This document shows positions 13,322-64,000 of a DNA stretch of 64,000 nt, piece after piece. This DNA comes from Escherichia phage UB: the sequence record MH383160, one strand, 5' to 3'. The notes under the pieces were generated by a model. It saw nothing but the letters and a program-made list of their open reading frames with translations. It did not search any database and was not told the DNA's origin. Both the position numbers and the translations under genes were made by a program. Position 1 is the first letter of the stretch. Each line of letters starts with the position of its first letter.

Positions 13322-13627
13322 TCATGATATTCGCATTTCATCTATATATAATGAACATGATTCAGAATTATCGTCTAAACTTAAACCTAAATCGACCATC
13401 AAACCGCAATGCGTTCCCCAGAATTTCTTTATGTATAGTTTTTTGCTACTATTACCTAAATCATAAACATATTCATTTTTAAATATACTTTTTAATTCTT
13501 CACATATACATTTTATTATCTTCATTACTTGATTATGATATTCGTATGGTATTCCATCAAGTTCGTTAATTATTAATGCAAAACCATTATCATAGTACTT
13601 AAGTTTATTGAATGTTTGTATATCCAT
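13322..13627 (-). CDS. hypothetical small protein
   Basis: 101 aa ORF. Confidence 0.4.
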   Translation of the reverse strand: MDIQTFNKLKYYDNGFALIINELDGIPYEYHNQVMKIIKCICEELKSIFKNEYVYDLGNSSKKLYIKKFWGTHCGLMVDLGLSLDDNSESCSLYIDEMRIS

Positions 13628-16708: not shown

Positions 16709-17851
16709 CTAAAAATCCTTTAGTACAATTTTCATGTATTTTATAAGAGTCTCTTTGTAATCAACTTTCTTATTGTTATACATTGCAAAGGCCAAGCCCT
16801 GACGATTCAGTTCATTAGTTAAACACTCCTGAACCTTCATTGCGAATTCCTTTCGCTCCAAGTGCTTGTGTTCCTTGACGAAGCTTTCTACTTCATCTTG
16901 TAATGCATTATAGCACGAAAATACCAATTGTTCCATTCTTAATATCTTTTGCATAGCATATTCATCAGTACTGAACAATTGTTTTAAATCATCACTTGAA
17001 CCATTTAATACTGCTTCATATAAATGAGAATCAATAATAATACTATCTTTTGTAAGATGTAATGAACTGTACCAGTCAGTCTTTATTTTACACATTGTCC
17101 CATTATTTAGGATGCACACAAAACCCTCAATATCAAGCATTTTATGAACTTCCTCCACGCTTTCACGGAAGGTATTTCGTACCGGAAAAGTGTGATGAAT
17201 ATCTTTTCCAGTCATATTAGTACTGTACTGTGCAAGACATGGAAACTTATCACGTAGTGCTTTACCACATAGCAACTCACCACTCACACGATGACGAACG
17301 TTCAGTACAAACAGTTGTTCTACCTGATATGGTAATACAATTCGGTACTCTGGGCTTGTATACTCCATATTAACTGTGTAACCTAAACGTTCCGCTTCGT
17401 CGATGTACTGATACAAATTCTGGTTCTCGTTAATAAGTCGAGTACTGTTAATCGCATGGTCAGAATACAATGCTGTATGTGATTTACAACGAATCTCACC
17501 ATCATTATCACGGTAAGTACTGATAATCGAACCATCCAACTTAGGCATCACTACCGCAATGTCATCGCATGTGGTGTTAGCAGGGAACATTGTAGCAGGA
17601 TTCTCGTAAGCATTGAAGAACTTTTTCATTGTACGTGCTGCACAACGTATCATGTCACCTTCTTCATCAATTTCCCACATAGAGCCACGGGTTTCCAATG
17701 CATTTGGTTGCATGAAATCAGTGTATGATGCTAGACGATAACTGAATACACGATACGTGCCACCAGCAGGACTTTTATGATCCACATAAAAGAATGCATC
17801 GTTTGTATTACATAAGTGCATTAAATCTTCATATATTTGCAAAAGGGTCAT
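16709..17851 (-). CDS. rnlA: RNA ligase 1 (T4 gene 63 / Rnl1 homologue)
   Basis: Adenylylation lysine motif K-x-D-G (MPKLDGSIIS); blocks FFY, RVFSY, ASY, EGFV, KIKTDWY, GSSDDLK, DEY colinear with T4 Rnl1 as recalled; 380 aa. Confidence 0.88.
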   Translation of the reverse strand: MTLLQIYEDLMHLCNTNDAFFYVDHKSPAGGTYRVFSYRLASYTDFMQPNALETRGSMWEIDEEGDMIRCAARTMKKFFNAYENPATMFPANTTCDDIAVVMPKLDGSIISTYRDNDGEIRCKSHTALYSDHAINSTRLINENQNLYQYIDEAERLGYTVNMEYTSPEYRIVLPYQVEQLFVLNVRHRVSGELLCGKALRDKFPCLAQYSTNMTGKDIHHTFPVRNTFRESVEEVHKMLDIEGFVCILNNGTMCKIKTDWYSSLHLTKDSIIIDSHLYEAVLNGSSDDLKQLFSTDEYAMQKILRMEQLVFSCYNALQDEVESFVKEHKHLERKEFAMKVQECLTNELNRQGLAFAMYNNKKVDYKETLIKYMKIVLKDF

Positions 17852-19384: not shown

Positions 19385-19687
19385 TTATCCTCTTAATTTA
19401 ATAGTACTGGCTGGATATTCTACAAAAGTATTATCTGGTAATCCTATACAGTAATAAGGTAAATACCCCATCTTTATATTAATACCAATTAAAATTCCTG
19501 TTTTATATGAAGTATTAATTCCATAGTAATCGTCTATATCAACAGCAAGTCCATATAATGATATGTTACAATCCTTGATGTATCGGTCAAACATTTTATA
19601 CATTGATGGATATAAAGTTCCATTGGATTGTCTCACCAAATCAGCCAACATTTTGATAGTACTGTTAATTAAATCTATACTGAACAT
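19385..19687 (-). CDS. hypothetical small protein
   Basis: 100 aa ORF. Confidence 0.45.
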   Translation of the reverse strand: MFSIDLINSTIKMLADLVRQSNGTLYPSMYKMFDRYIKDCNISLYGLAVDIDDYYGINTSYKTGILIGINIKMGYLPYYCIGLPDNTFVEYPASTIKLRG

Positions 19688-20023: not shown

Positions 20024-20761
20024 TTAGAAATATATCATACCCATCAATTCAGAATCGGCGGGGCGAGTGTAACCTTGCTTCTTAACTTTAAAATAGAATG
20101 ATTCATGCTCTTCTAAATTATAACGTTTTTTCAAGCAACGAGTGTATGTCTGACAATTTGGGTGAACCCATTCATAAATGTGAATGCCATTTTCGTCATA
20201 ACCATTTATACTACAACGATTTCCTTCATGCTTCATGAAGTTTTTACTTTTTTCAGTAAATTCTTTCACTGTAGTTGTATATGGAGATTTGTATTCAAAA
20301 GGAACTTCAGTCATACGAAAATAATAGTATTCTTCGTCTTCATCATATCCCAAGAGCACTGTGTTAGTTTCACGTACATTGTAATGATTCTTACTTTTTA
20401 ATTCATTTTCGTATATATCTTTCAGTACTTCTGCAAAAACTTCCTCGCTTGATGCATTAGGATTAGATACACCTGATACTCGGCGTTCAATAATAAAATC
20501 AGTGAATTTACGGTCTTCGGCAATATCTTCGTTCATATAAAGACTAACAAACTTATCCTTATATGTCTTTACACTATATTGCTTACTTTGCACTTCACTA
20601 TAAACATCTGCTAACATATTCTCCTGACCACACTGCACACCACTTACAGAATAAGCACATGCATGTTCAGCCATTACTGATGTTAACATTTGGAAATTTG
20701 CCATGTTTAATTCATTCGCCATCTCTGTAGCGAAACGGATACGGTCAAGCATTTCACACAC
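20024..20761 (-). CDS. hypothetical protein
   Basis: 245 aa ORF. Confidence 0.5.
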   Translation of the reverse strand: MCEMLDRIRFATEMANELNMANFQMLTSVMAEHACAYSVSGVQCGQENMLADVYSEVQSKQYSVKTYKDKFVSLYMNEDIAEDRKFTDFIIERRVSGVSNPNASSEEVFAEVLKDIYENELKSKNHYNVRETNTVLLGYDEDEEYYYFRMTEVPFEYKSPYTTTVKEFTEKSKNFMKHEGNRCSINGYDENGIHIYEWVHPNCQTYTRCLKKRYNLEEHESFYFKVKKQGYTRPADSELMGMIYF

Positions 20762-20810: not shown

Positions 20811-21107
20811 CTATTGTCCCTGTTTATAGCAATAAAGATTCTCTAATTTAAAGTCCACTAGGTCACATTCAGAACGTACTCGATTCTTGTTCCAGAATAA
20901 AATACGAATCCTTTCATAATCACGATAAACACTAATAATGCTTCGGTGCTTGGATTTGTAGTACTCCTGTACTATCCCCAGATACACAGTCCTCAATAAA
21001 GACTTAGTTGGATAGGGCATATTCTGTGCTGACGTGATATTGTAAATCATCTTCATTGTTTCAGCAATAAGTACTTCATTTGTTCTCATTGTAATCCTTA
21101 CATACAC
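20811..21107 (-). CDS. hypothetical small protein
   Basis: 98 aa ORF. Confidence 0.4.
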   Translation of the reverse strand: MYVRITMRTNEVLIAETMKMIYNITSAQNMPYPTKSLLRTVYLGIVQEYYKSKHRSIISVYRDYERIRILFWNKNRVRSECDLVDFKLENLYCYKQGQ

Positions 21108-22269: not shown

Positions 22270-22543
22270 TCTTCAATTCCAGTAAATTTACACCAATCCA
22301 ATCAACATCACTATCAGTACTTAATTCCAATCGTAGCTTACCGCTATGACTAACAATATCGCGGAATTTGTATATTTTATTATCACGAACTATACACAAA
22401 TCATGGTAATAATCATGTAATTCATCCAAAAACTTTATCCATACCGAACGATAGATTTCACTGTAGAGATATTCTCCAGCATCAACCGTAGCGTATTGGA
22501 TATACAAAAATTTGTATGTGAATTGTATATCATTTAATAACAT
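22232..22543 (-). CDS. tandem paralogue family C member
   Basis: 103 aa; MLLNDIQFTYKFLYIQY N-terminus. Confidence 0.5.
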   Translation of the reverse strand: MLLNDIQFTYKFLYIQYATVDAGEYLYSEIYRSVWIKFLDELHDYYHDLCIVRDNKIYKFRDIVSHSGKLRLELSTDSDVDWIGVNLLELKNEKQLKGNTSIL

Positions 22544-25145: not shown

Positions 25146-25663
25146 AAATTCTTCATCACCAATCCAAGAGATTTAAGATAATTGATTTTAGCAGTGGTTA
25201 AGTACTTATCTAGTACTATCAGACACGAAGGAAATGGTGCTGAATCTGTTTTCTTCTCTGGTTCTTCTGGGATACCAAATCGTAACCTTCCCTTAATAAA
25301 ACAAATACAATCACAAACTTTCGCAGCATAATCCTGAAAAGCTATAGTATCCGTTCTTGATGGTACAAGAATTAATACAGTTGCCCCTTTATTATACGCA
25401 TCTACTGCTTTAGATAACCATGTTTTCAAATCACTATATGGAGGGTTCAACCAAACTATATTCTTTCCCCAATCCTGTGAAAGAGAATCATCATTTGGTG
25501 TAAAATAATTCTCACATAATGCAGTCTCATCAACACAAGCAGCATCAAGCGTAAATCCCCATAACTCATCTAACTCTTCAAAGAAATCTTTTGGAGTTGT
25601 CCAGTTATCTTTACCAGTACTGAAGTGTACTGAATGTTTGTTCGAAGTATCCTTCTTCGACAT
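25142..25663 (-). CDS. phage Dam-type DNA N6-adenine methyltransferase
   Basis: Motif IV NPPY (WLNPPYSD) and upstream FTLDAAC block typical of small phage N6A methyltransferases; 173 aa. Confidence 0.65.
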   Translation of the reverse strand: MSKKDTSNKHSVHFSTGKDNWTTPKDFFEELDELWGFTLDAACVDETALCENYFTPNDDSLSQDWGKNIVWLNPPYSDLKTWLSKAVDAYNKGATVLILVPSRTDTIAFQDYAAKVCDCICFIKGRLRFGIPEEPEKKTDSAPFPSCLIVLDKYLTTAKINYLKSLGLVMKNL

Positions 25664-43493: not shown

Positions 43494-44044
43494 AATAGTT
43501 CCTTATACATATTATGTACTTTACAAATCTCATTATAGTATTTCATATCAATATCATTTGTATTAAAAACGGAAACAGACAATACCGCTAAATCATCAAT
43601 GAAGTAATTATTATCGGCGTACTCTTTTAACTTATTGAACATATAGATGCATTTTATACTTAATTCATCATGCAACACACTGTTCTGAAAAATATTCTCT
43701 TCAGTATTAGGAGATAAGTAATCTTCAATTATATACGATAAACTACTATCGCAATCTTTATAGATTGAAATTGATGGATGTAATGTGTCATACATTACAC
43801 TAAACAGATCACCGTCATATGTGGATATTAAACTATTATTGGAAACAGTAGGATGATAATATTTCAGTACTGAAAACTTTGAACAATCAGTGCAGTAAAA
43901 ATGATCCATCCCTCGACGACTTTCGTATGAGAATAGTTTACTTGTATATTCAATCCCTTTGGTGCGACGGATTGTTTCATGCATTTCTGCACATTGCATT
44001 AAAATTACCATACGTTCAAACGCAAGATCTAAATCATCGTACAT
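43484..44044 (-). CDS. family A protein
   Basis: 186 aa; EENIFQNSVLH. Confidence 0.55.
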   Translation of the reverse strand: MYDDLDLAFERMVILMQCAEMHETIRRTKGIEYTSKLFSYESRRGMDHFYCTDCSKFSVLKYYHPTVSNNSLISTYDGDLFSVMYDTLHPSISIYKDCDSSLSYIIEDYLSPNTEENIFQNSVLHDELSIKCIYMFNKLKEYADNNYFIDDLAVLSVSVFNTNDIDMKYYNEICKVHNMYKELLCQ

Positions 44045-44225
44045 AACGGATATCCTTCTTCAACGAATTAATATATTCCAAAATAACTTGTTCCTGATAT
44101 TGAGTTCCCAAGTACATCAGGACTTTCAACTCTTTGAATTCAGTACTATATGAGTCTGTTTGCATCATTCTAGTAGAATATATATTGAATAGTTTAGCAA
44201 TGTCATTTTGGTCTATTATTTTCAT
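44034..44225 (-). CDS. family B small protein (outlier copy)
   Basis: 63 aa; LMYLGTQYQEQV. Confidence 0.45.
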   Translation of the reverse strand: MKIIDQNDIAKLFNIYSTRMMQTDSYSTEFKELKVLMYLGTQYQEQVILEYINSLKKDIRYVR

Positions 44226-44421
44226 ATATTCTCTTCTGGATTAGTTCCTGTAAGTGCTGAATATAACCCTTCATTGCAACATCCTGTTTGTTAGAGCCAA
44301 CGAAGAACAAGAGCTTAAAGTCATGGTAATCCATTTTTGGTTTAGTAGTGAACCATATGTCCCACACTGCACTCACAGTTCTCATGTATTCAATTCGATT
44401 AAATGTTTTTGAATACTTCAT
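44203..44421 (-). CDS. family B-like small protein (outlier copy)
   Basis: 72 aa; FFVGSNKQDVAMKGY. Confidence 0.4.
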   Translation of the reverse strand: MKYSKTFNRIEYMRTVSAVWDIWFTTKPKMDYHDFKLLFFVGSNKQDVAMKGYIQHLQELIQKRIYENNRPK

Positions 44422-47826: not shown

Positions 47827-48318
47827 TCAACCCCTGTTAATACCGTTATCTACAGTTTTCTTTACGTATTTGTAATCGAAATAGAAGTTCCCAGAACCAA
47901 TACTTTTAAAGTACCACATAATTATAATAACATCAAGTACTTCATTATCATATACAGTACTTTGTTGGAAGTAATACTCTTCACTATCCCACGGACCTTC
48001 CAGTACTTCACTCGGAATTATAATGTCATTGGAATCGCTGTCAGTACTGTTGATGGTATCTGTATCATTAATATAGACCATGTACTCATTATGCATATTA
48101 ATGAAGCATTCATAATCATTAGGGTCGGTATCTAGTATGCACGTTTCTGTATCCAGTACGCACGTTTCTGTATCTGAGCAGTCATTATAAAGGAGGTTAT
48201 CCGGTACATAATATTGAGTACTTGTGTCTTTGAAAACACCGTAAACTGAACCTTCTTTTGCCATATTCATGTACTCATGAATCTTCTTTGCTTTTTCCAA
48301 TGAACTCTGTAATGTCAT
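47827..48318 (-). CDS. family A protein, MSLQSAL subfamily
   Basis: 163 aa; MTLQSSLEKAKKIH; EEYYFQQSTVYDNEVLDVIIIMWYFKSI. Confidence 0.6.
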   Translation of the reverse strand: MTLQSSLEKAKKIHEYMNMAKEGSVYGVFKDTSTQYYVPDNLLYNDCSDTETCVLDTETCILDTDPNDYECFINMHNEYMVYINDTDTINSTDSDSNDIIIPSEVLEGPWDSEEYYFQQSTVYDNEVLDVIIIMWYFKSIGSGNFYFDYKYVKKTVDNGINRG

Positions 48319-48327
48319 TTTATAATC

Positions 48328-48687
48328 TCATATATTGAAATAATAATTATTCGTTCTTGATGGGGATGGATTAAATACGTTTTCTTTTTCAAATCTCTTC
48401 ATTTCATTTTGCAAAGAAACCATTTCTTCAAATGTACAGGAGTACTTATTCTTATCAAACACTAATGCAGCCTGAAATAGTTCGCCATCGTCCAGTACTG
48501 TATAATCTATAAGACTCTCAGATTCATAGTCATAGTCGTCATGTGATACATGAATAAATTTAAAACAAGAATCTTTGTAATGCATATATAAACTCAACTC
48601 ATGTTCCGAGTCGCCCTTAATAAGATTACAGCACAAGTCCCATCCTTTAGGTAACTTATAATAGTACATAGAATAATCATATGTCAT
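48328..48687 (-). CDS. family A protein, LVFDK subfamily
   Basis: 119 aa; DGELFQAALVFDKNKYSCTFEEMVSLQNEMK. Confidence 0.55.
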   Translation of the reverse strand: MTYDYSMYYYKLPKGWDLCCNLIKGDSEHELSLYMHYKDSCFKFIHVSHDDYDYESESLIDYTVLDDGELFQAALVFDKNKYSCTFEEMVSLQNEMKRFEKENVFNPSPSRTNNYYFNI

Positions 48688-49043
48688 TCTTGAATTCCTA
48701 AATTGAATTTGTATTCTTGATTAATACTTGCATTGGGTTTATGCAAAGCAGCATACTCTTTCATTTCATTTTGTATTGCAATAACTTCTTCAAATGTACA
48801 CAAGTACTTCTTATCAAATACTAATGATTCTTGGAATAGTTCTGCGGTATCCATTAATGTATAGTCCGGCATATCTTGGTGTGGATACTGTAATGAACTG
48901 TAATCAATGAATGTAAATTTACCCTGAGTGTAATGAATATACTCATTCGCACTGTGCATTAAATCACCTTTGTTTAAATTACAAAAGTACTGATAACTGT
49001 GCTTGAAAGTATGTACTGATATTAAAAAATCAAATTCCATCAC
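48684..49043 (-). CDS. family A protein, LVFDK subfamily
   Basis: 119 aa; TAELFQESLVFDKKYLCTFEEVIAIQNEMK. Confidence 0.55.
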   Translation of the reverse strand: MMEFDFLISVHTFKHSYQYFCNLNKGDLMHSANEYIHYTQGKFTFIDYSSLQYPHQDMPDYTLMDTAELFQESLVFDKKYLCTFEEVIAIQNEMKEYAALHKPNASINQEYKFNLGIQE

Positions 49044-49417
49044 TCTTCTCCTAGATTAAAAAATTTCCAGAAATCGGCCTCACCAGTACTGCACCAGATA
49101 TCTATACATTCCCTGTGAATACATTTAATTCTACGCTGTAATTCAATCATCTCTTCTAATGTACAGATGTACTTCTTATCAAATACTAATGCCTCCTGGA
49201 ACAGTGCAGCATCATCAAGTACTGTATAGTCCGGCATCTCGATAGATATCCCATGAAACCCAGTACTAAAATCCATCAAATAAAAGTCAGCATTCCAGTA
49301 CTTTAAAATCTTGTCCCTAGCGTAGTTTAAATCACCCTTGTATAAGTTAGAGTGCGTAACTAACTCACCAGTGTACATCCATGTCCTTGCACAAAATTCA
49401 TTATATTTTATTTCCAT
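49040..49417 (-). CDS. family A protein, LVFDK subfamily
   Basis: Track ORF 49040..49525 trimmed to internal Met (MEIKYNEF) by analogy with paralogue length; DAALFQEALVFDKKYICTLEEMIELQRRIK. Confidence 0.5.
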   Translation of the reverse strand: MEIKYNEFCARTWMYTGELVTHSNLYKGDLNYARDKILKYWNADFYLMDFSTGFHGISIEMPDYTVLDDAALFQEALVFDKKYICTLEEMIELQRRIKCIHRECIDIWCSTGEADFWKFFNLGEE

Positions 49418-49614
49418 CTTAATCTCTACTATAATTAATAAGGTAAACTCCAATATAAGGAGCACGTTGCGGGGGCGGGGTATTTTTTGTTTCAGGAAAC
49501 ATGAACTGTACTCTGAAAAACACAATATAAAACTTTATATTAAACATATACCTTAGCATGTTTTTCAGCGGAAATTTTTTTGACCCCCCTGCGGCCTGTA
49601 AAAATGAAACGTCT

Positions 49615-49824
49615 CTATTTATTCAGCCTAGAAAGCTTGATTTCTTCAATCCTTTTCATCGCACAAAGCCTTCGACTCGTCATCTCGTATAAATTCAATA
49701 CTCGGTGTACCGTATTATCTACACTCTGAACCAAATATGTATCCTTCAAAATCAAATCCATCATGTATTCAAAACCCTTAATACTATGCGAACTTAACAC
49801 TTCCGGCTCTTCAAACGTAATCAT
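49615..49824 (-). CDS. hypothetical small protein
   Basis: 69 aa ORF. Confidence 0.4.
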   Translation of the reverse strand: MITFEEPEVLSSHSIKGFEYMMDLILKDTYLVQSVDNTVHRVLNLYEMTSRRLCAMKRIEEIKLSRLNK

Positions 49825-50041
49825 AATTCCAATCCCCTATCCCATCTAACCTTCTAAGATATCTTGCGTAAATTATTTCGAAATATCTGTGCAACGAAAT
49901 TACGGATTGCTCATAATCATCATTCCTGTACATTGTGCATGTAAGAAAATCATTTAACCCAAAATCTAAACTGCACTTGAACTTCTCCTTTGCAATATCA
50001 CTATTACTTGCACTTTTCATAATAAACCCTTTGTACCGCAT
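49811..50041 (-). CDS. hypothetical small protein
   Basis: 76 aa ORF. Confidence 0.4.
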   Translation of the reverse strand: MRYKGFIMKSASNSDIAKEKFKCSLDFGLNDFLTCTMYRNDDYEQSVISLHRYFEIIYARYLRRLDGIGDWNYDYV

Positions 50042-55965: not shown

Positions 55966-56171
55966 TAATGTTCTTCTCTTAAAAATCGTTTGATAGCATA
56001 ATCTAAATAAAATTCATAACACATGCTATCTCTGTTCTTTATCCATATTTTGTAATCGGATTTTATATTACTCAACAAATAATTTGTATTAATTGTGTAA
56101 TAATCCAAACGACCTAATCGTGCCATTTGATAGGATACTCCGTTCCATTTATTGTATAAGATATAATCCAT
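55965..56171 (-). CDS. hypothetical small protein
   Basis: 68 aa ORF. Confidence 0.35.
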   Translation of the reverse strand: MDYILYNKWNGVSYQMARLGRLDYYTINTNYLLSNIKSDYKIWIKNRDSMCYEFYLDYAIKRFLREEH

Positions 56172-56524
56172 CCGTAATGAATAGGACTATTCTTTTCTCC
56201 TTTAGGAATAAAATATAAAGATGTACTGGGGTTATAACTGAATAAATCGTTGTTACCAAATGTAAAATGCGATAACTCAATTTTCCTTGTACCTGTACTT
56301 GGACGAAGAGCATTCTTAACACCGAAGACTGTACCTTGATATTTCTCGGAAAATTCAAACAATACATCTGTAATTAAATCACGAAACTCCGCATGTATGG
56401 TTTCAAAAAAATCTATATTACACGATGTTTTAATATCCTTGAACTCATTATAAAAAGCATGTCTTGTATTCAAAAGAAATATTACTTTTTTAAGATCCTG
56501 AACTATTTCTGGATTCATATTCAT
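56114..56524 (-). CDS. hypothetical protein
   Basis: 136 aa ORF. Confidence 0.45.
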   Translation of the reverse strand: MNMNPEIVQDLKKVIFLLNTRHAFYNEFKDIKTSCNIDFFETIHAEFRDLITDVLFEFSEKYQGTVFGVKNALRPSTGTRKIELSHFTFGNNDLFSYNPSTSLYFIPKGEKNSPIHYGWIISYTINGTEYPIKWHD

Positions 56525-56756
56525 TTATCTCATTCTGTAACTTAAGCATCAAAATTTGCATATTAATTTTTTGTAAAAGGTGCTTGATAAATTTCTGTGC
56601 CATTTCTTCTTGTTCTTTTGTACCAAGATAAAATAACAGATTAAATTCTGATAATCGCAAAGAAAAATCTTCATCACCACCCTTTAAACAAAAATCCCTG
56701 TACTTTGTAGCGTACAAATATTGGTTTACCTTTTTATAATACCCTGTGTTTTGCAT
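56490..56756 (-). CDS. family B small protein (outlier copy)
   Basis: 88 aa; FYLGTKEQEEMAQKFIKHL. Confidence 0.45.
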   Translation of the reverse strand: MQNTGYYKKVNQYLYATKYRDFCLKGGDEDFSLRLSEFNLLFYLGTKEQEEMAQKFIKHLLQKINMQILMLKLQNEINEYESRNSSGS

Positions 56757-56944
56757 ACTATCTCCGTTCGCAACGAATTTATATAATAATGAACAAATTG
56801 TTCTTGTGAACGTGTTCCAAGAAAAATAAACATATCAAACTCTGTTGTTTTTAAATTCAATGCATCTTTTGTAAAATTCCTGTTGAATTCCCTGTACTTT
56901 TGGGTCTTCCATTCTTGATTAATTGTCTTGTATATCGATTTCAA
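56726..56944 (-). CDS. family B small protein (outlier copy)
   Basis: 72 aa; IFLGTRSQEQFVHYYINSL. Confidence 0.45.
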   Translation of the reverse strand: MKSIYKTINQEWKTQKYREFNRNFTKDALNLKTTEFDMFIFLGTRSQEQFVHYYINSLRTEIVCKTQGIIKR

Positions 56945-57239
56945 TGATTCTCCCTGACATACCTTGTATTAGCTTATCATACATATCGAGCATCACTTTT
57001 TGAATATTAATTAGTACTGGCATCGTGCAAATATCAATGTCGTATACTAAGCTGTACTGGAATAATTCATCTTCCTGCATTTGTACTAAATTAGGTAAAA
57101 GATAATTGTCTGCCTCTTCATCCTGGTACTTGAAATGCATAACACCATCCTTTTTGTACAAAAGAATGTCAATATCACCTAACTCTTCTGCATAACCAAA
57201 AATACATATACTCGATGTTTTTGCTATATTAAATTTCAT
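56919..57239 (-). CDS. family A protein
   Basis: 106 aa; EDELFQYSLVY. Confidence 0.55.
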   Translation of the reverse strand: MKFNIAKTSSICIFGYAEELGDIDILLYKKDGVMHFKYQDEEADNYLLPNLVQMQEDELFQYSLVYDIDICTMPVLINIQKVMLDMYDKLIQGMSGRIIEIDIQDN

Positions 57240-58045
57240 GATTTATATTGTTCCTTAAAAACACCACAATGATAATTTTTATTGTATTGTGTAATACTAT
57301 AATCACACGGCATTGTCCCGCACGAAGCTCTGTGTTTTAAACGTTCCAATACCTTATCGTAATCTTTACTGAAAATGCCATTTTCATTGGGCGTAGCAAT
57401 CATTAATGCTTGCTCATATAAATCTTTTGTTCTTGTTGAACCATGCGAATGTTTGTTAAAATAAAATACATATTCAACTTCCCAATTACTTCTTAAATAG
57501 GATATTCCGTAATTGATAATCATATAATAATGTAAATCCTTGTAATAATTGAATGTCTTATCTGTATTAATCAAAATATATGAAGAACTATCATTGTCCT
57601 TAATAACAAATAAACGACCAATCTTATTTTCTTTATCTTTAACTAATTGTCTAATTTCATCACCTTCTTCAAATTTACGATGCACTTCAATTACAGATTT
57701 AGCAATCCCAGTCTGTACTAAAGATTCATATGTTGCGTACATAAAATCACTTACATGACCTAAACCAACATCTTCTTTTCTTGGTGTCTCTGTTGTATTG
57801 ACAAACATATTCAATAACTTTTGAATTGAAAAATCAGTACTGCAATCTTTATTAATTTTAATTTTTTCTCGAATCTCTTCCTTTAATGCATTAATATATT
57901 GCTCTTGTGCTGCTTCCTGATAATTTGTACCAAGATATAAACTCAAGGCAACTGAACCTTTGTAAGATGCTGATTTCTTTAAATCACCAGAACTAAATTT
58001 TTTCATAATCAAATTGGTTGCTTCAGATTCTGTTAAAAATTTCAT
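57236..58045 (-). CDS. family B module fused to a larger C-terminal domain
   Basis: 269 aa; N-terminal about 75 aa carries LSLYLGTNYQEAAQEQYINALKEEI; followed by about 190 aa unrelated region. Confidence 0.55.
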   Translation of the reverse strand: MKFLTESEATNLIMKKFSSGDLKKSASYKGSVALSLYLGTNYQEAAQEQYINALKEEIREKIKINKDCSTDFSIQKLLNMFVNTTETPRKEDVGLGHVSDFMYATYESLVQTGIAKSVIEVHRKFEEGDEIRQLVKDKENKIGRLFVIKDNDSSSYILINTDKTFNYYKDLHYYMIINYGISYLRSNWEVEYVFYFNKHSHGSTRTKDLYEQALMIATPNENGIFSKDYDKVLERLKHRASCGTMPCDYSITQYNKNYHCGVFKEQYKS

Positions 58046-58153
58046 ATCATTGTACCTTATCTTAAAATTGAATAGGTAAACATGTTAACACTATTCAAAT
58101 GGAGTGTCAACATTGATCTTCATTCTGTGAATATTAAATTTCATATTATTCTC

Positions 58154-58486
58154 TTATATATTGAATTCACATACGTGTTGAACAAAATTCTTTGGAAGAT
58201 GACAATGTGCAATCATCTGCTGTTGCACTTTCTTCATATCTTCTAATGTAAAACCTAAAGAATCATCGTGTACTAACATGTACTGAAACTCTTCTTCTTC
58301 AGAGATAGAACATAAATTCGGTACTGAAATTGTTTTTGTTTTTCTTGCACCTAATTTCCAATGAAAAGAATTATTGCATTTTCTGTACTCAAATATCTTC
58401 AACCCAGCACCTCTATTAAAATCAGCTACTACAATGTAACATGAATTCTTACGTACAATACAATTAAATTTACGCATTATCTCCAC
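58154..58486 (-). CDS. family A protein
   Basis: 110 aa; EEEEFQYMLVH. Confidence 0.55.
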   Translation of the reverse strand: MEIMRKFNCIVRKNSCYIVVADFNRGAGLKIFEYRKCNNSFHWKLGARKTKTISVPNLCSISEEEEFQYMLVHDDSLGFTLEDMKKVQQQMIAHCHLPKNFVQHVCEFNI

Positions 58487-58722
58487 CTCTCTCCGTCATC
58501 GCAAGAGTACTGGTACGTTGTCGTTAGGGTAGGGACCATGTTGGTAATGGGCATATTATTAACAATAACCGTAACAGGCATAAGAATCGTCTCTACTCTA
58601 CTCTGTCCTGTCCTTGTGCAATTCATCTTTTGCATTTCATCTGAATCCATGAAATACAATACAAATGGTGCAATCCCAAGAACAATACACAAGACGATAA
58701 GGAAATTTAAAAAATTTAACAT
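58477..58722 (-). CDS. small membrane protein
   Basis: 81 aa with N-terminal hydrophobic helix (FLNFLIVLCIVLGIAPFVLYF). Confidence 0.4.
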   Translation of the reverse strand: MLNFLNFLIVLCIVLGIAPFVLYFMDSDEMQKMNCTRTGQSRVETILMPVTVIVNNMPITNMVPTLTTTYQYSCDDGERWR

Positions 58723-58781
58723 AATTTTTACCCTATGATTAACGTTAGTGTACTATATCAGTAATGAAAAGTACTGTCAAG

Positions 58782-59177
58782 CTAGTACTGCACTGTTCTA
58801 ATGAAAGTACCTTTACTCATGGATTTAAGCTTATGAACCTCTTCCTGCATACCCTTAATTAACCCTAAAGGTATAGGTAAATCATGTACTAAGCTGTACT
58901 GAAAGTATTCTTCTTCAGATAAAGTACTAACATCTGGGACTCCAATTTTAGTTAGATAATCTTGATGTGTTGACCAATAAATTATATCTTCAGTACTATT
59001 GTACTCCCCATATACTGAACAATATTGATGAATATCTTTCCTGTACCCTTGAGCAATAAAGAACTTATCTACTGCATTACCAGCATTAATAGAATTCACT
59101 TCTATTGTCACAGTACTTGAGCTTGTATAACTCTTAATATTATCAGTACTCAATAATGTGTTCTTCATAATCACCAT
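58782..59177 (-). CDS. family A protein
   Basis: 131 aa; LSEEEYFQYSLVH. Confidence 0.55.
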   Translation of the reverse strand: MVIMKNTLLSTDNIKSYTSSSTVTIEVNSINAGNAVDKFFIAQGYRKDIHQYCSVYGEYNSTEDIIYWSTHQDYLTKIGVPDVSTLSEEEYFQYSLVHDLPIPLGLIKGMQEEVHKLKSMSKGTFIRTVQY

Positions 59178-59487
59178 TAGGCTCCTGTTTAGATTCTTTC
59201 ATTAGTACTATCATCTTATGTACTAATGGCATAGGAAACTCTAAATCCCATACTAATGATTCCTGAAAGTATTCTTCTTCAGATAAAGTACTTAAATCTT
59301 TAATATCAACGTGCTTGTATATTTTATTTTCGTAATTAACAAATGATATATATAAATCACTAACATAAGAATCATAGGTAATTGTGAATGGCTTACCCTT
59401 GTAATCCATTACATCTCTACATAGACTACTTTTGATATATGTATGTTCAAATGATTTATATACCTTGAGTTGTATATTAGTTTTCAT
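59143..59487 (-). CDS. family A protein
   Basis: 114 aa; LSEEEYFQESLVW. Confidence 0.55.
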   Translation of the reverse strand: MKTNIQLKVYKSFEHTYIKSSLCRDVMDYKGKPFTITYDSYVSDLYISFVNYENKIYKHVDIKDLSTLSEEEYFQESLVWDLEFPMPLVHKMIVLMKESKQEPNGDYEEHIIEY

Positions 59488-59752
59488 ATTTCTCTTTATT
59501 AGCTTGTTTTGTTTTATGGTGAATTAAATCTATTAATGTAATCAAGTACAACGTCAAATAGTACTCTTGTTGATCTGTACCTAATGATACAAAGAACTTG
59601 TGCTCATAGATTAAAACCTGTTTCTCTTCAAATGGACATTTAATCCTCTGTATAGGCTTAAGTAAATGATAGTACTTATTAAATCTATGATACATTTCTA
59701 GTTCTGTCAGTACTTTCATATTAAACACGTACTCCATTAGCAGTAGCATCAC
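59477..59752 (-). CDS. family B small protein
   Basis: 91 aa; VSLGTDQQEYYL. Confidence 0.5.
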   Translation of the reverse strand: MMLLLMEYVFNMKVLTELEMYHRFNKYYHLLKPIQRIKCPFEEKQVLIYEHKFFVSLGTDQQEYYLTLYLITLIDLIHHKTKQANKEKYEN

Positions 59753-59942
59753 GTAAAGCTGTCAAATACTTCTGTACTGCTTGCTCTTGTTTATTTGTAC
59801 CTAAAAGTATATACATCCATAATTCACTGTAATGTACATCTTCTGTATAAGGGTTGTTGTAACTTTTTGATAATATAGCATCAAATTCAGATGCATGAAC
59901 CCTTGTGAACTTAAGAATATCTTGTTGTGTTATGATTCTCAT
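59721..59942 (-). CDS. family B small protein
   Basis: 73 aa; ILLGTNKQEQAV. Confidence 0.5.
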   Translation of the reverse strand: MRIITQQDILKFTRVHASEFDAILSKSYNNPYTEDVHYSELWMYILLGTNKQEQAVQKYLTALRDATANGVRV

Positions 59943-60154
59943 ATCTTTTCCTGTACAATCTGTATAAGAATACCTATGTGTGAATTAACAGTTCTCTCTT
60001 GATGCTGTGTTCCTAAGAGTGTCAGTACTATCATATCTGAACGCAAAAGATTTTTTTCAAGTTCACTTATATCAGTTCTTGAATCAAGTGCCATATATTT
60101 GTGATTATTCTTCCTGAATAGTGCCAAGTACTCTTGATTTGATATTTCCTTCAT
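59939..60154 (-). CDS. family B small protein
   Basis: 71 aa; LTLLGTQHQERTV. Confidence 0.5.
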   Translation of the reverse strand: MKEISNQEYLALFRKNNHKYMALDSRTDISELEKNLLRSDMIVLTLLGTQHQERTVNSHIGILIQIVQEKI

Positions 60155-60372
60155 AGTTTATTCCTGATGCCATTTAAAAGTGCTCTAATATGCTCATTGA
60201 CAAATCGCTCTTGGGAATCTGTTCCTAGAGTGAGTAGCAATCTTAAATCTGAACTTTTGATGTGATATTCTAAATCATTATTTGATTCTTGCATCAGTTT
60301 CTTAAAGGATGAGAAGTTTGCAGCCATTAGTTCAATGTATTCTGCTGTTCCTAGTGGTTTGTGTGTTGACAT
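60151..60372 (-). CDS. family B small protein
   Basis: 73 aa; LLTLGTDSQERFV. Confidence 0.5.
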   Translation of the reverse strand: MSTHKPLGTAEYIELMAANFSSFKKLMQESNNDLEYHIKSSDLRLLLTLGTDSQERFVNEHIRALLNGIRNKL

Positions 60373-60584
60373 TTGAGTTGTATTACCCTTTTGAGTGTAT
60401 TAATGTAATTATACACATTGGCTTCTTGATAGTTTGTTCCTAGAGTAGCTTGAACATAGATTTCATTTAACTTAATAATTTTATCAGTATCTGGTAGTTT
60501 TGATGTGTTAATGGCAAATAACTTCAAAAACAGTCCATTTAAGATTGTTAGGTATTCTTCGTCGGTAATGATTCGCATTTGCAT
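60351..60584 (-). CDS. family B small protein
   Basis: 77 aa; ATLGTNYQEANV. Confidence 0.5.
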   Translation of the reverse strand: MQMRIITDEEYLTILNGLFLKLFAINTSKLPDTDKIIKLNEIYVQATLGTNYQEANVYNYINTLKRVIQLKCQHTNH

Positions 60585-60796
60585 TGGATAAACCTTTTTA
60601 GTTCTTTGATGTAATCATTAATATTGCATTCTTGGTAGTTAGTTCCCAGTGTAGCTTGAACATAGATTTCACTTACTAGAATACTTATTTCATCATCTGG
60701 TAATTTCATGCTTTTTGTTATAAACAACTTTAGAATTAAACTACTTAATAGTTGGTTGTATTCTGTGGGTGAAATGATTTTCATTTTCATTTGCAT
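60548..60796 (-). CDS. family B small protein
   Basis: 82 aa; ATLGTNYQECNI. Confidence 0.5.
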   Translation of the reverse strand: MQMKMKIISPTEYNQLLSSLILKLFITKSMKLPDDEISILVSEIYVQATLGTNYQECNINDYIKELKRFIQCKCESLPTKNT

Positions 60797-61002
60797 TTTC
60801 TCAGTACTGATTCTTTAAGTTCATTGATGTAGTCCTCAACGAATTGTTCTTGTAGGTTTGTTCCGAGATATAACAGTACTCTTAAATCTGCTCTAAGTAC
60901 TTCTTTGTCATCTTCATCTATATCAGACAGTGTTATGTTTAAGAATTTACTTGAATTCTCTACAAGTAATATTACTTCTTCACCTTCTCTTAAAATTTTC
61001 AT
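60787..61002 (-). CDS. family B small protein
   Basis: 71 aa; LYLGTNLQEQFV. Confidence 0.5.
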   Translation of the reverse strand: MKILREGEEVILLVENSSKFLNITLSDIDEDDKEVLRADLRVLLYLGTNLQEQFVEDYINELKESVLRKCK

Positions 61003-61208
61003 AATCTTAGTGCTTTCCTCGACAGTAGGTACAGGTAACGTTCAGTGCATTGTTCTTGATAGTTTGTTCCTAATAAATGAACTAAATGTTGTTCAGCTAT
61101 AGAAAGCTGCTTGTCTTCATAACAAGCGTATCGTTGTTTCCTATGGTATTCTTTATTGATAACATCAAGGATGATAACACCGTATTCGTCATCTGTCAAG
61201 TGTTTCAT
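60999..61208 (-). CDS. family B small protein
   Basis: 69 aa; HLLGTNYQEQCT. Confidence 0.5.
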   Translation of the reverse strand: MKHLTDDEYGVIILDVINKEYHRKQRYACYEDKQLSIAEQHLVHLLGTNYQEQCTERYLYLLSRKALRL

Positions 61209-61446
61209 GCTTTTTTCTTTTTCTTATATGTTTAGTTAAAAGGTATATTAGTTTTCTGATGTATTCTTCCTGATAGTTTGTTCCTAAGAGTGCAAGAAGT
61301 TTTGCTTCAACTAAAGCTAATTGACGTTCTTCGAATGTGTGTTCCAGTATGTACTTGGGGTTTGATTTTTTAGCGTAAGCACTATTAGTCTTCATTACAA
61401 TCTTATGATATTCATTAGCTGTTAGGATTTTTAAATACTTGATCAT
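61189..61446 (-). CDS. family B small protein
   Basis: 85 aa; ALLGTNYQEEYI. Confidence 0.5.
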   Translation of the reverse strand: MIKYLKILTANEYHKIVMKTNSAYAKKSNPKYILEHTFEERQLALVEAKLLALLGTNYQEEYIRKLIYLLTKHIRKRKKHETLDR

Positions 61447-61666
61447 GTATCTTTTCCTTTATAGAGAATTTAAGATATCGAAGCATACTTTCAATGTAAT
61501 ACTCTTGTCTGTCAGTGCCAAGAAAGTACATGAGTTGAATGTATAAAACTTCTGCACTCCTTTCCGCTGGAGACTTGTTTGTGTCGTTTGGAAGTTGATT
61601 TGTATGTTTTCTTGATTTAATTAGTCGTTCTTTTAACTCATCGTCTGTTAAGTATTTCATTTTCAT
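61415..61666 (-). CDS. family B small protein (PAERSAEVL subtype)
   Basis: 83 aa; PAERSAEVLYIQLMYFLGTDRQEYYI. Confidence 0.5.
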   Translation of the reverse strand: MKMKYLTDDELKERLIKSRKHTNQLPNDTNKSPAERSAEVLYIQLMYFLGTDRQEYYIESMLRYLKFSIKEKIHDQVFKNPNS

Positions 61667-61892
61667 TTACTTTTTCCTTAATAGTAATTTTAAGATATCT
61701 AATCATACGTGCAACATATTCCTCTTGTCTATCAGTTCCCAGAAGATATGGTAGTGATTGGAATAATACTTCTGCACTCCTTTCTGCTGGGGTTTGGTTT
61801 AGGTCAATTGGACGTTTATTGGTATATCTCTTGGCACGAACTAATCTCTCGACGTATTCATTATAGGTTAAGTATATCATTTCATTTTGCAT
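61638..61892 (-). CDS. family B small protein (PAERSAEVL subtype)
   Basis: 84 aa; PAERSAEVLFQSLPYLLGTDRQEEYV. Confidence 0.5.
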   Translation of the reverse strand: MQNEMIYLTYNEYVERLVRAKRYTNKRPIDLNQTPAERSAEVLFQSLPYLLGTDRQEEYVARMIRYLKITIKEKVNENEILNRR

Positions 61893-62118
61893 TTACTTTT
61901 TCCTTAATAGTAATTTTGAGATATTTAATTATACGTTCAATGTGATACTCTTGCCTATCAGTTCCAAGAAGGTATGGTAATCTTTGGAATAAAACTTCCG
62001 CACTCCTTTCTGCTGGGGTTTGATTTGTGTTGTGAGGAAGTTTATTTGTAAGTCTTTTGGATTTATCTAGTCTTTCTGTTAACTCATCATGTGTTAAGTA
62101 TATCATTTCATTTTGCAT
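61882..62118 (-). CDS. family B small protein (PAERSAEVL subtype)
   Basis: 78 aa; PAERSAEVLFQRLPYLLGTDRQEYHI; N-terminus MQNEMIYLT identical to neighbour. Confidence 0.5.
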   Translation of the reverse strand: MQNEMIYLTHDELTERLDKSKRLTNKLPHNTNQTPAERSAEVLFQRLPYLLGTDRQEYHIERIIKYLKITIKEKVNAK

Positions 62119-62345
62119 TTAATGTTCCTTACGTAAATTGTCTGGATTAAACAATCAATCCAAGTTTGAATATATTGGTTTTGATACTGTGTGCCTAAGA
62201 GACTCTGCATTTTAAACTCTGCTTCAAGTTCATATCTCTTTTCTATAGAAAAGCTCAAATGACCATATTCTTTATCGTATCTTCTCAGTGCTTCCCCAAT
62301 TCTATTAAATCTTTCTGCTAATCTGATGTTATTCACAATATTCAT
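62103..62345 (-). CDS. family B small protein
   Basis: 80 aa; SLLGTQYQNQYI. Confidence 0.5.
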   Translation of the reverse strand: MNIVNNIRLAERFNRIGEALRRYDKEYGHLSFSIEKRYELEAEFKMQSLLGTQYQNQYIQTWIDCLIQTIYVRNIKCKMK

Positions 62346-62632
62346 CGATCAGTATACCTCAGTGGTTGGGTCATTTGATAAAAGTACAGCTTACCTTTGA
62401 TTTCCAGTAGTAACTCCGCGATTAAGCGATTTACTTCTGTATCTTGATAGTTTGTTCCTAAGAATACACCCATCTTTAACTCACGCATCATAATCATTTT
62501 CTTACTGTGTTGGATTTCTGGGTTGTGATAAATTGTATTACGTTTGTGCGTAATTTTTGTCATACGCTCGGTATATTCATCTTTACTTAAATTGATCATT
62601 TGCATGTTAATTACCCTTACATTTATTTTCAA
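62342..62632 (-). CDS. family B small protein
   Basis: 96 aa; VFLGTNYQDTEV. Confidence 0.5.
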   Translation of the reverse strand: MKINVRVINMQMINLSKDEYTERMTKITHKRNTIYHNPEIQHSKKMIMMRELKMGVFLGTNYQDTEVNRLIAELLLEIKGKLYFYQMTQPLRYTDR

Positions 62633-62837
62633 TACTATTCATGAGTTCTATAAGATAGTTTTCTACCTTACCTTCCTGATAGTTAGTCCCTAGGAAGTTG
62701 CACAACACGGCTTCTATGATTTTGATTTTCCTGATATCAGGCTTCAATCTTTTGTTATTGAATATTTGAATCCTTATATCTCTGGATGCATTTAAACGTT
62801 TTTGATATTCATGGTAAGTTAAATGAATCATTTTCAT
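62607..62837 (-). CDS. family B small protein
   Basis: 76 aa; NFLGTNYQEGKV. Confidence 0.5.
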   Translation of the reverse strand: MKMIHLTYHEYQKRLNASRDIRIQIFNNKRLKPDIRKIKIIEAVLCNFLGTNYQEGKVENYLIELMNSIENKCKGN

Positions 62838-63052
62838 TTACGTTTAACCTCTCGCTGGAGGGCATCAATTAACATCAGTACAGCATTCTCTTGATAGTTT
62901 GTTCCTAAGACTGAAAGCATCTTTATCTCATTTACTAAAATCAACTTCTTTGAGGGTTCAATAATGTGACTATCATAAACGGCCTTACGTGCTGGATAAG
63001 TTTTCGCCAGTATAACATAAAATTCGTCTTTACTTAAATTAATCATTTGCAT
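62834..63052 (-). CDS. family B small protein
   Basis: 72 aa; SVLGTNYQENAV. Confidence 0.5.
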   Translation of the reverse strand: MQMINLSKDEFYVILAKTYPARKAVYDSHIIEPSKKLILVNEIKMLSVLGTNYQENAVLMLIDALQREVKRK

Positions 63053-63261
63053 TTACTTTTAACCTCTTTCTGTAGAGCGTCAATCCATAGATCTACATAC
63101 ATTTGTTGATAGTTTGTGCCTAAGAGTGCACCTACATAGAGTTCAGTTACTAGTGCGTGCTTAAGGTTAGCTTGGATGCTCTTATCGCTTGATATCATTC
63201 TCCTTCTGCTTCCACATGTTTTCAGGAGTCTGATGTATTCAAAGCCTTGTAAATTTCTCAT
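63043..63261 (-). CDS. family B small protein
   Basis: 72 aa; ALLGTNYQQMYV. Confidence 0.5.
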   Translation of the reverse strand: MRNLQGFEYIRLLKTCGSRRRMISSDKSIQANLKHALVTELYVGALLGTNYQQMYVDLWIDALQKEVKSKCK

Positions 63262-63473
63262 ATTTTGGATACCACCTTGTTACGTAAGGAACTTAATAAT
63301 ACGTCAGTGTAGATGTTTTGATAGTTTGTCCCTACGAATACACCCAACTTCATTTCAGCTATTATAACACATTTGTCCTCTTGTGCAATAGATTTGTTTA
63401 ACACAATACTATACACTTTTGATTTGATAGTTTGTAACCTCCAATGATACTGATACTCATTAAGGATTATCAT
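63258..63473 (-). CDS. family B small protein
   Basis: 71 aa; VFVGTNYQNIYT. Confidence 0.5.
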   Translation of the reverse strand: MIILNEYQYHWRLQTIKSKVYSIVLNKSIAQEDKCVIIAEMKLGVFVGTNYQNIYTDVLLSSLRNKVVSKI

Positions 63474-63708
63474 TCTCTTTCCTCCAGATTTCGGTTCTCA
63501 TGTGTTGGCAGTGTGCTTCGATGAACATATCTATTGATTTGGCAATTGCGTTTTTATCAGTGCCTGTCATCAGTACAAGCATCTCGGCCTCACAGTGAAG
63601 TAAACGCATGATATCATAGGGTAATATTTCAGATACAGTGTCATAGTGTTTCTGTGCCAGTGTCTGCAATAGTTTACAATACATTTTGTGATTTAGTCTT
63701 TGTCGCAT
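63460..63708 (-). CDS. family B-like small protein (divergent)
   Basis: 82 aa; LVLMTGTDKNAIAKSI. Confidence 0.4.
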   Translation of the reverse strand: MRQRLNHKMYCKLLQTLAQKHYDTVSEILPYDIMRLLHCEAEMLVLMTGTDKNAIAKSIDMFIEAHCQHMRTEIWRKENDNP

Positions 63709-63965
63709 TGTTTATTCCATTCTTTTTTGGCCTTGATGGTTTTATATTGGATTTGGTTTCTTAATGCTGATAAGTATCGTTGAATGAACAGATCTTGATA
63801 GTTTGTTCCAATGAATTTCATAAGATAAAGTTCACCGTTGATAACATCCACTTCAGGTGCACCATATAAGGCATTGTTTTTTCTAAGGGCATGGATTAAA
63901 GAGAATAGGGCAGTTTGATACTCAACTCCTGATAAAGTCTTCATGTTTTGTGAGCAAATAATCAT
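63693..63965 (-). CDS. family B small protein
   Basis: 90 aa; KFIGTNYQDLFIQRYL. Confidence 0.5.
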   Translation of the reverse strand: MIICSQNMKTLSGVEYQTALFSLIHALRKNNALYGAPEVDVINGELYLMKFIGTNYQDLFIQRYLSALRNQIQYKTIKAKKEWNKQCDKD

Positions 63966-64000
63966 CTAGTTTATCCTGTATAACATTCGTTAATTGTTCG

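Follow-up and report, generated by a model that had tools for sequence, protein, structure and literature searches.

The MGF110, MGF360 and MGF505 families of African swine fever virus (ASFV) and the terminal host-range families of poxviruses act in host range and immune evasion. In phages, the terminal-redundancy module of SPO1, the Tre genes of Kayvirus and the pre-early genes of T5 form host-takeover blocks at the genome ends, and the polymorphic internal proteins of T4 and the inner-body paralogs of phiKZ-like phages are packaged into the capsid, are substrates of the prohead protease and, in some cases, act against restriction. Here we analyze a tandem array of small paralogous genes, termed family B, in a stretch of 64,000 nucleotides (nt) from Escherichia phage UB (sequence record MH383160; hereafter the window). 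By megablast, the window is DNA of an Asteriusvirus jumbo coliphage of the PBECO4/121Q/phAPEC6 group, the genomes of which measure about 350 kb. A tandem array in 121Q-like phages has been mentioned in one sentence each by Hua et al. 2017 (PMC5646251) and Wagemans et al. 2020 (PMC7247149). Both papers call the genes 'very similar' or 'closely related' and give no coordinates, family definition, fold or function; the former speaks of 'more than 30' similar tandem genes and suggests that tandem expansion fits a larger capsid. This published array is very probably the family B locus, as it belongs to the same genus, the window is 99% identical to phAPEC6 in the core, and the 31 family B members that we find in phAPEC6 fit 'more than 30'. 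The wording 'very similar' nonetheless contrasts with the identity of about 24% that we observe between paralogs, and the neighbouring family A, with at least 30 members, might be the published array instead. Since the array occurs in 34 public genomes, has an entry in PHROG and has been noted in print, its existence is already known.

In their behaviour, the terminal families of ASFV and poxviruses and the SPO1, Kayvirus and T5 blocks would be the nearest analogues of the array. Like the array, the ASFV and poxvirus families consist of diverged tandem paralogs that lie by the terminal repeats of a large linear double-stranded DNA genome, are non-structural, and vary in copy number and alleles between strains. 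They differ from it in their unrelated sequence, in the domain of their hosts and in having a function that was shown experimentally, where that of the array is deduced; moreover, the order of the paralogs is more conserved in the phage array. The SPO1, Kayvirus and T5 blocks share with the array region many small genes of unassigned fold at or near long direct terminal repeats, as well as sigma-70-type promoters. However, the genes of these blocks are not paralogs, lie inside the repeat and have a promoter per gene or small operon, whereas family B, a single family, occupies a spacer-free stretch just beyond the repeat. The T4 internal proteins and phiKZ-like inner-body proteins resemble family B as small, fast-evolving phage proteins with a common short conserved segment, but in family B this segment is internal and structural, and no member appears in the examined part of the phAPEC6 virion table. 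Family B falls outside the ASFV, poxvirus, SPO1, Kayvirus and T5 families.

An earlier sequence-only reading of the window had described about 20 mini-genes with an LGTNYQE-type motif at 59477-63965, and this array is borne out by the ORF list: the interval is tiled exactly by 20 consecutive open reading frames (ORFs) of 69-96 amino acids (aa) on the minus strand, each with one copy of the motif. The family is not confined to this interval, however. Using a hidden Markov model (HMM) built from the window copies, we listed 25 family B members in the window, of which 20 are contiguous and five are outlying, at 44.0-44.4 kb and 56.5-58.0 kb (Table 1). In complete genomes of related phages, the HMM finds 29-31 members (31 in phAPEC6), of which 27-28 are contiguous. 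The window therefore lacks about the first eight genes of the array, which, judged from these relatives, extends by that number past the window edge at 64000, in line with the continuation that had been suspected. All credible genes of the window are on the minus strand, its GC content is about 31-34%, and it contains no tRNA genes.

The array consists of genuine protein-coding paralogs. The window genes were paired with their orthologs in four related phages (78 pairs), and the mismatches at codon positions 1, 2 and 3 numbered 437, 288 and 652, respectively (32, 21 and 47%; chi-square p = 2e-32). The sequence-only reading had proposed that a lack of codon-position periodicity would speak against the genes, and what we observed was a pronounced excess at the third position. 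In addition, the pooled ratio of nonsynonymous to synonymous substitution rates (dN/dS) of the orthologs was 0.31-0.41 between the window and three genomes. An AlphaFold2 model for which the alignment consisted of 23 window paralogs alone reached a mean predicted local distance difference test (pLDDT) value of 97.1 and a predicted template modelling (pTM) score of 0.82; such a pLDDT, obtained from paralogs alone, means that there is real covariation among them. The codon-position pattern, the dN/dS values and the pLDDT thus agree with the earlier view of real small coding genes of one family, and we regard it as close to certain that they form a real, expressed multigene family made by tandem duplication.

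A typical family B motif reads [LVI]-G-T-x-x-Q-[EDN] and is located about two thirds of the way along each protein. A scan with the pattern [LVFIMT]GTx(2-3)[QN] identified one copy in each of the 20 array ORFs and further copies at 44111, 56627, 56821 and 57934, with a strong strand bias: there were 29 matches on the minus strand, 24 of which are family members, versus four on the plus strand. The spacing from motif to motif is 206-263 bp (mean 222.5 bp). At the DNA level, the 20-mer TTGATAGTTTGTTCCTAAGA, which is the reverse complement of TTA GGA ACA AAC TAT CAA, the codons for L-G-T-N-Y-Q, occurs in 10 copies at three or fewer mismatches versus 0.03 in shuffled sequence, and it is retained at this level in only half of the copies. 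The periodic 20-mer described earlier is therefore present, with its 10 copies and a recurrence of about 220 bp, but it is mostly a by-product of the conserved peptide with a mild extra codon preference. This preference is seen for asparagine, encoded by the rare codon AAC in 12 of the 13 N-Y copies against a background of 24%, for glycine, encoded by GGA in 14 of 25 motif copies against 26-36%, and in the fraction of identical codons at the motif N and Y, which is 0.72-0.82 versus about 0.5 elsewhere (for example, in the motif at 62891-62910); all three figures are to be read with the fact that the motif copies are not independent of each other. Short-patch gene conversion or a constraint at the RNA or DNA level could be behind this uniformity.

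The structural model predicts, with very high confidence, that the family B protein is a single domain of about 70-80 aa that forms a compact four-helix bundle. Its helices span residues 8-17, 19-27, 33-47 and 54-71, and a small bridge connects residues 4 and 51. In the alignment, the G and T of the motif are invariant and the Q and L are near-invariant; in the model, L-G closes helix 3 and T-x-x-Q-E opens helix 4. On the basis of helix-capping rules, we infer that the motif combines a glycine C-cap with a Ser/Thr-x-x-Glu/Gln N-capping box and is a fold-determining turn, not an active site. The family B alignment contains no Cys/His/Asp pattern pointing to catalysis or metal binding. The invariant scaffold is made up of the L-G-T-x-x-Q-E connection between helices 3 and 4 and a hydrophobic stripe on helix 4. 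Outside this scaffold the surface can vary freely, the net charge of the members ranging from -7 to +9. Along helix 4, the conserved profile columns 59, 60, 63, 67 and 70 alternate with the fastest-changing columns 54, 57, 61, 64, 68 and 72, which vary even between orthologs. Helix 4 therefore has one buried face and one face that is exposed and rapidly evolving, and the stretch after the motif that had been described as amphipathic-looking is this fourth helix of the domain.

The paralogs are on average about 24% identical, and adjacent paralogs are more similar to each other than distant ones (32% versus 23% identity; 0 of 5000 permutations were as extreme). A triplet (55-74% identity) and a pair (55%) represent recent local duplicates. 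Tandem Repeats Finder (TRF) detected only the region 61452-62121 (3 x 226 bp, 74% matches), the remainder being too diverged, and junction sequences such as AAATGCAAATGAAA recur from unit to unit. The array thus grew by gene-sized tandem duplication followed by divergence to about 24% identity, and the recent local duplicates are the expected footprint of gene-sized unequal crossing-over. When the members from five genomes were clustered at 70% identity, their order proved largely collinear, the departures being local allele replacements, small indels, one swap and one extra duplicate. This conserved order across the genus implies that each paralog is an old gene at a fixed position, and not a transient dosage copy.

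In a comparison of one genome pair, the window versus phAPEC6, the dN, dS and dN/dS values were 0.0014, 0.024 and 0.06 for core enzymes, 0.019, 0.074 and 0.25 for family A, and 0.052, 0.133 and 0.39 for family B. Compared to the core genes, family B thus has a 37-fold higher dN and a 5.5-fold higher dS, and it is the most rapidly diverging part of the window. At the nucleotide level, the window matches phAPEC6 at 99% over 1-20 kb, and the minimum of 87.6% falls at 62-64 kb. Likewise, the window at 5-20 kb, where DNA ligase, RNA ligase, polynucleotide kinase and ClpP are encoded, is 98-99% identical to about 20 phage records, and the array region at 59-64 kb shows only 84-94% identity to those same phages. 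Ortholog identity is uneven: one gene is 64% identical to its orthologs in two phages and 94% to that in a third, and for another gene the values are 99%, 45% and 78%. Such jumps from gene to gene indicate that alleles have been shuffled between phages by recombination. The paralogs are under purifying selection and kept in order across the genus, yet they evolve much faster than the core genes. We also observed that 48001-50000 and 56001-60000 are only 62-76% alignable to phAPEC6, the closest genome, which points to indels or replacements between family A and family B.

The sequence-only reading did not recognise the family, and our searches leave PHROG 4148 as its only match. All seven typical members that were compared match phrog_4148 (no known function) with E-values from 1.2e-10 to 1.5e-21 over profile positions 1-70/74. 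This entry matches family B over its full length, but is itself only a sequence cluster, silent on fold, array and position. The most divergent member (Table 1) is below threshold in PHROGs, yet matches the window-built HMM. Searches of Pfam and of PDB sequences gave nothing consistent, and NCBIfam and PADLOC returned scattered chance matches only, each in one of 23 members, with no profile common to the family. In the fold libraries there was no specific fold neighbour of the family B model, and Foldseek against BFVD retrieved nothing beyond the family itself. When 1.84 billion cluster representatives were searched exhaustively with the profile, 81 proteins emerged; one has 269 aa and all others have 52-96 aa. 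Among 5.8 billion proteins, a word-indexed search gave 151 matches, the named sources of which are E. coli or Salmonella, with many on contigs of about 350 kb, and tblastn against 50,697 phage records found 34 Escherichia/Salmonella jumbo phages and nothing else. To judge from these searches, family B is specific to the lineage of Asteriusvirus jumbo coliphages and a few uncultured relatives. It should be noted here that NCBI lists many of these proteins under 'Escherichia coli' (P0003, P0005, P0009 and others), on contigs of 343-366 kb, so that E. coli assemblies contain whole Asteriusvirus genomes, via contamination or a carrier state.

Divergent members were found in uncultured phages with a GC content of 29-30%. 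One contig (L009; 4.7 kb, SRR22590157) carries 15 family B members in tandem, and another (L004; 40.8 kb, SRR34023385) carries six scattered ones. A blastn search with L004 against the 50,697 phage records gave no DNA match, and two of the distant metagenomic members, used as tblastn queries, had no match in cultured phages. The tandem members in such distant phages mean that the array organisation is older than the genus.

To describe the packing of the genes, we scored the 19 junctions of the array with HMM-guided start codons. Eleven of them lie within -4 to +7 nt, seven of these being ATGA overlaps, and the others overlap by 14-32 nt; the close abutment or overlap of the genes that had been described earlier is thus found at 11 junctions and is compatible with translational coupling. 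The position of the array in the genome is best seen in fEgEco12, which has direct terminal repeats of 20,993 bp and physical ends set by PhageTerm and restriction digests (PMC13070987). Read from left to right, the repeat at 1-20,993 of this record holds 56 small genes, each with a spacer. Family B begins at 21,091, 98 bp past the repeat boundary and in the orientation of the repeat genes, and runs through 28 genes without spacers. Perfect (12/12) TTGACA-16/17-TATAAT promoters on the gene strand number 12 in the fEgEco12 repeat (L006 1-20,000), in addition to many 10-11/12 matches, and nine perfect sigma-70 promoters are present in the terminal-repeat region of ELP-22 (L001 19,900-28,800). 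The promoters of the repeat are all on the gene strand, at about one per small gene, and the functions annotated within the fEgEco12 repeat include a Ser/Thr kinase, a DksA-like protein, an acetyltransferase and spackle. By these features the terminal repeat is an early-type region, unusually 'textbook' in its promoters and driven by the host RNA polymerase. Around its boundary in fEgEco12 there is a hairpin just before the boundary, followed by a promoter-like TTGACT-N17-TATATT site and a GGAG ribosome-binding site.

Two further observations concern the repeat. Its boundary is located within a 250-bp spacer just upstream of the first family B gene (L006 20,842-21,090; L001 18,480-18,731), a spacer that also carries a AAAAAAGTCAAGG...CCTTGACTTTT inverted repeat and a promoter-like site; it may contain the genome-end (packaging cut) signal. 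Moreover, a perfect hairpin of 28 nt, AAAGGGATTGACTCCGGTCAGTCCCTTT, is present in three to four copies per terminal repeat (Table 1), each overlapping a TTGACT -35 box that is followed by TATTAT. This hairpin could act as terminator and promoter at once, or form a promoter element that is subject to regulation.

The spacer-free packing, the ATGA overlaps and the lack of internal promoter enrichment predict that the array is one long, translationally coupled operon. We propose that this operon would be transcribed early or early-middle in infection and its genes translated by coupling, and that the product would be a cocktail of small non-enzymatic intracellular proteins. Each member would bind a different host or phage macromolecule in host takeover or in the neutralisation of defences. 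In this scheme the G-T-x-x-Q turn would hold the common scaffold together, target specificity would come from the variable surfaces, above all from the face of helix 4 that is exposed, and allele swapping and gene gain and loss would tune the set to the host population. Host takeover or counter-defence is the most plausible purpose. Taken as a whole, with the family and the binder function together, this best explanation has about an even chance of being right, and for the role as early host-interaction binders in itself we would go slightly less far than that. A more tentative extension, which we consider possible but would not favour, is that the array is to bacteriophages what the terminal multigene families are to large DNA viruses of eukaryotes, with a library of about 30 diversified and positionally conserved mini-binders on one four-helix scaffold. 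By this analogy, the members would be expressed from one coupled operon right after the terminal repeat, each would neutralise its own host factor or defence system, and the exchange of alleles between phages would track host diversity. All members might dock to one common partner through conserved residues around the G-T-x-x-Q turn, with the variable face of helix 4 giving the specificity.

Several points weigh against early host-directed binders. Firstly, an arms race would classically leave a signature other than a dN/dS below 1 and a gene order conserved throughout the genus. Secondly, the array lies outside the promoter-dense repeat, with only a 9-10/12 promoter match upstream and a hairpin in between, and sigma-70-like sites are not enriched inside it (47 versus 53 expected). 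In view of the weak upstream promoter and the absence of internal enrichment, a middle or late expression programme is possible. Lastly, in the literature on the array we found no functional, transcriptomic or protein-expression study.

Rather than binders of diverse targets, the family B proteins could be regulators of transcription or nucleic acids, in the sense of small factors binding RNA polymerase, DNA or RNA through which a 350-kb genome sets its temporal programme. The pI is above 8 in 14 of the 25 window members, the array adjoins an early region that encodes a DksA-like protein, and L-G-T-x-x-Q-x-x-V looks superficially like the turn of a helix-turn-helix (HTH) motif, all of which would suit such a role. 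When tested for HTH character, family B showed neither the tri-helical HTH fold nor similarity to known HTH domains. Furthermore, the net charge of the members ranges from -7 to +9 and their isoelectric point (pI) from 4.4 to 9.9, which implies that they are not all DNA mimics and not all nucleic-acid binders. We consider a regulatory role unlikely, although it deserves to be kept in mind.

Family B could also act in superinfection exclusion or in competition between phages, or serve the adjacent family A proteins as a set of adaptors or chaperones; none of these roles would be directed at the host. The setting of the genes is what suggests such a function: a spackle-like exclusion protein is encoded in the terminal repeat next to the array, family B is interleaved with family A at 44.0-44.4 and 56.5-58.0 kb, and the family B members of the L004 contig lie beside a run of genes for 150-200 aa that are family-A-like by size alone. 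Against it, the roughly 30 family B genes and at least 30 family A genes show no pairing and no alternation, and the two families are not homologous; a common origin was rejected at an hhalign probability of 0.35%. The AlphaFold model of family A reached a pLDDT of only 66.6. On balance we rate this possibility as rather unlikely.

According to the 'genomic accordion' idea, duplication enlarges the genome to fit a larger capsid and the copies are filler of little individual function. The tandem array in 121Q was read in this way (PMC5646251), the idea was repeated for phAPEC6 (PMC7247149), and the copy number is indeed slightly variable between genomes. However, DNA of that kind would decay into pseudogenes, whereas here paralogs of about 24% identity are each kept in place across the genus at a dN/dS of 0.3-0.4, with invariant scaffold residues, and arrays are also found in distant uncultured relatives. 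This makes filler improbable as an account of the array.

Virion or injected proteins in the manner of the T4 internal proteins or the phiKZ-like inner-body paralogs are an alternative that we regard as quite improbable. Head-internal paralog families do occur in other jumbo phages, and the loose M-K-x-L-T-x-x-E-Y pattern that is common to the family B N-termini could be read as a targeting tag. In the model, however, the N-terminal residues are within the fold, where residue 4 is bridged to residue 51 and helix 1 already begins at residue 8, so that there is no detachable propeptide; the predicted structure thus argues against a cleavable capsid-targeting tag. The virion proteome of phAPEC6, as determined by mass spectrometry, comprises 62 proteins. 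In the tail of the virion table, which is the part examined, nothing is listed between gp347 and gp549, and the array corresponds to gp467-gp489. Small proteins can appear in this table, since a protein of 4.7 kDa was detected, and the absence of family B from the examined part argues against a structural role.

Finally, the suggestion that a non-coding DNA repeat carrying the 20-mer gives rise to spurious ORFs, to which the recurrence every ~220 bp and the uniformity of the motif codons relative to background (AAC in 12 of 13 versus 24%) might lend some colour, is for practical purposes ruled out by the excess of substitutions at the third codon position, a dN/dS below 1, a pLDDT of 97 from paralog covariation, negligible DNA similarity outside the motif, and the lack of any Rfam match.

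Table 1. Family B genes of the window, listed from the window edge inwards, and hairpin copies in the terminal repeats of two related phages.
Feature	Coordinates	Strand	Evidence
Family B, gene 1 in the window, IGTNYQD	63693..63944	-	HMM E=1.6e-21; longest ORF to 63965
Family B, most divergent member, TGTDKN, 6-aa insertion after motif	63460..63708	-	HMM E=3.4e-21
Family B, VGTNYQN	63258..63473	-	HMM E=1.1e-23
Family B, LGTNYQQ	63043..63261	-	HMM E=2e-25
Family B, LGTNYQE, protein modelled by AlphaFold2 (pLDDT 97.1)	62834..63052	-	HMM E=1.3e-23
Family B, LGTNYQE	62607..62837	-	HMM E=1.5e-25
Family B, LGTNYQD; likely true start ATG 62599	62342..62632	-	HMM E=9.9e-25
Family B, LGTQYQN	62103..62345	-	HMM E=4.4e-21
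Family B, LGTDRQE, young triplet copy 1, 64-74% identity to two neighbours	61882..62118	-	HMM; TRF period 226
Family B, LGTDRQE, triplet copy 2	61638..61892	-	HMM; TRF
Family B, LGTDRQE, triplet copy 3	61415..61666	-	HMM; TRF
Family B, LGTNYQE, most basic member, charge +8	61189..61446	-	ORF, HMM
Family B, LGTNYQE	60999..61208	-	HMM E=3.2e-22
Family B, LGTNLQE, most acidic member, pI 4.5, charge -6.5	60787..61002	-	ORF, HMM
Family B, LGTNYQE, 55% identity to next gene	60548..60796	-	ORF, HMM
Family B, LGTNYQE	60351..60584	-	ORF, HMM
Family B, LGTDSQE	60151..60372	-	ORF, HMM
Family B, LGTQHQE	59939..60154	-	ORF, HMM
Family B, LGTNKQE	59721..59942	-	ORF, HMM
Family B, last gene of the contiguous array, LGTDQQE; likely true start ATG 59719	59477..59752	-	ORF, HMM
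269-aa protein, N-terminal ~66 aa a family B module, LGTNYQE	57236..58045	-	HMM E=3.1e-16
Outlying family B, LGTRSQE, among family A genes	56726..56944	-	HMM E=5.4e-22
Outlying family B, LGTKEQE	56490..56756	-	HMM E=5.9e-20
Outlying degenerate family B, VGSNKQD	44203..44421	-	HMM match in C-terminal half only, E=3.8e-8
Outlying family B, LGTQYQE, 63 aa; gp432c in phAPEC6 annotation	44034..44225	-	HMM E=4.7e-13
28-nt hairpin copies, ELP-22 (L001)	20035-20062, 22298-22325, 25289-25316
28-nt hairpin copies, fEgEco12 (L006)	9491-9518, 13489-13516, 16758-16785, 19510-19537

One member of the family is fused to another domain (Table 1). The C-terminal ~200 aa of this 269-aa protein form a beta-rich orphan domain with no homologue beyond its own 99%-identical cluster; among 5.8 billion proteins this was the one protein cluster found, and there was no Pfam or PHROG match. 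The fusion gene is absent from ELP-22, phAPEC6 and ph0011. With an orphan C-terminus and a gene that is missing in three relatives, the fusion is uninformative as a 'Rosetta stone' for the function of family B. At 58477-58722, between members of family A, there is also an ORF of 81 aa with a hydrophobic N-terminal segment, MLNFLNFLIVLCIVLGIAPFVLYF, and a match to PHROG 8826, the product of which is, by its sequence, probably a small membrane protein.

Taken together, families A and B occupy about 35 kb, or approximately one tenth of the 350-kb genome, with genes of no assigned function. If the array is dispensable, it would support the inflation of jumbo genomes by tandem duplication. If it is host-directed, it would offer a ready-made set of about 30 natural mini-binders on one well-predicted scaffold and a route to new mechanisms of host takeover or counter-defence, and it would help to explain the 'dark' DNA of jumbo phages.

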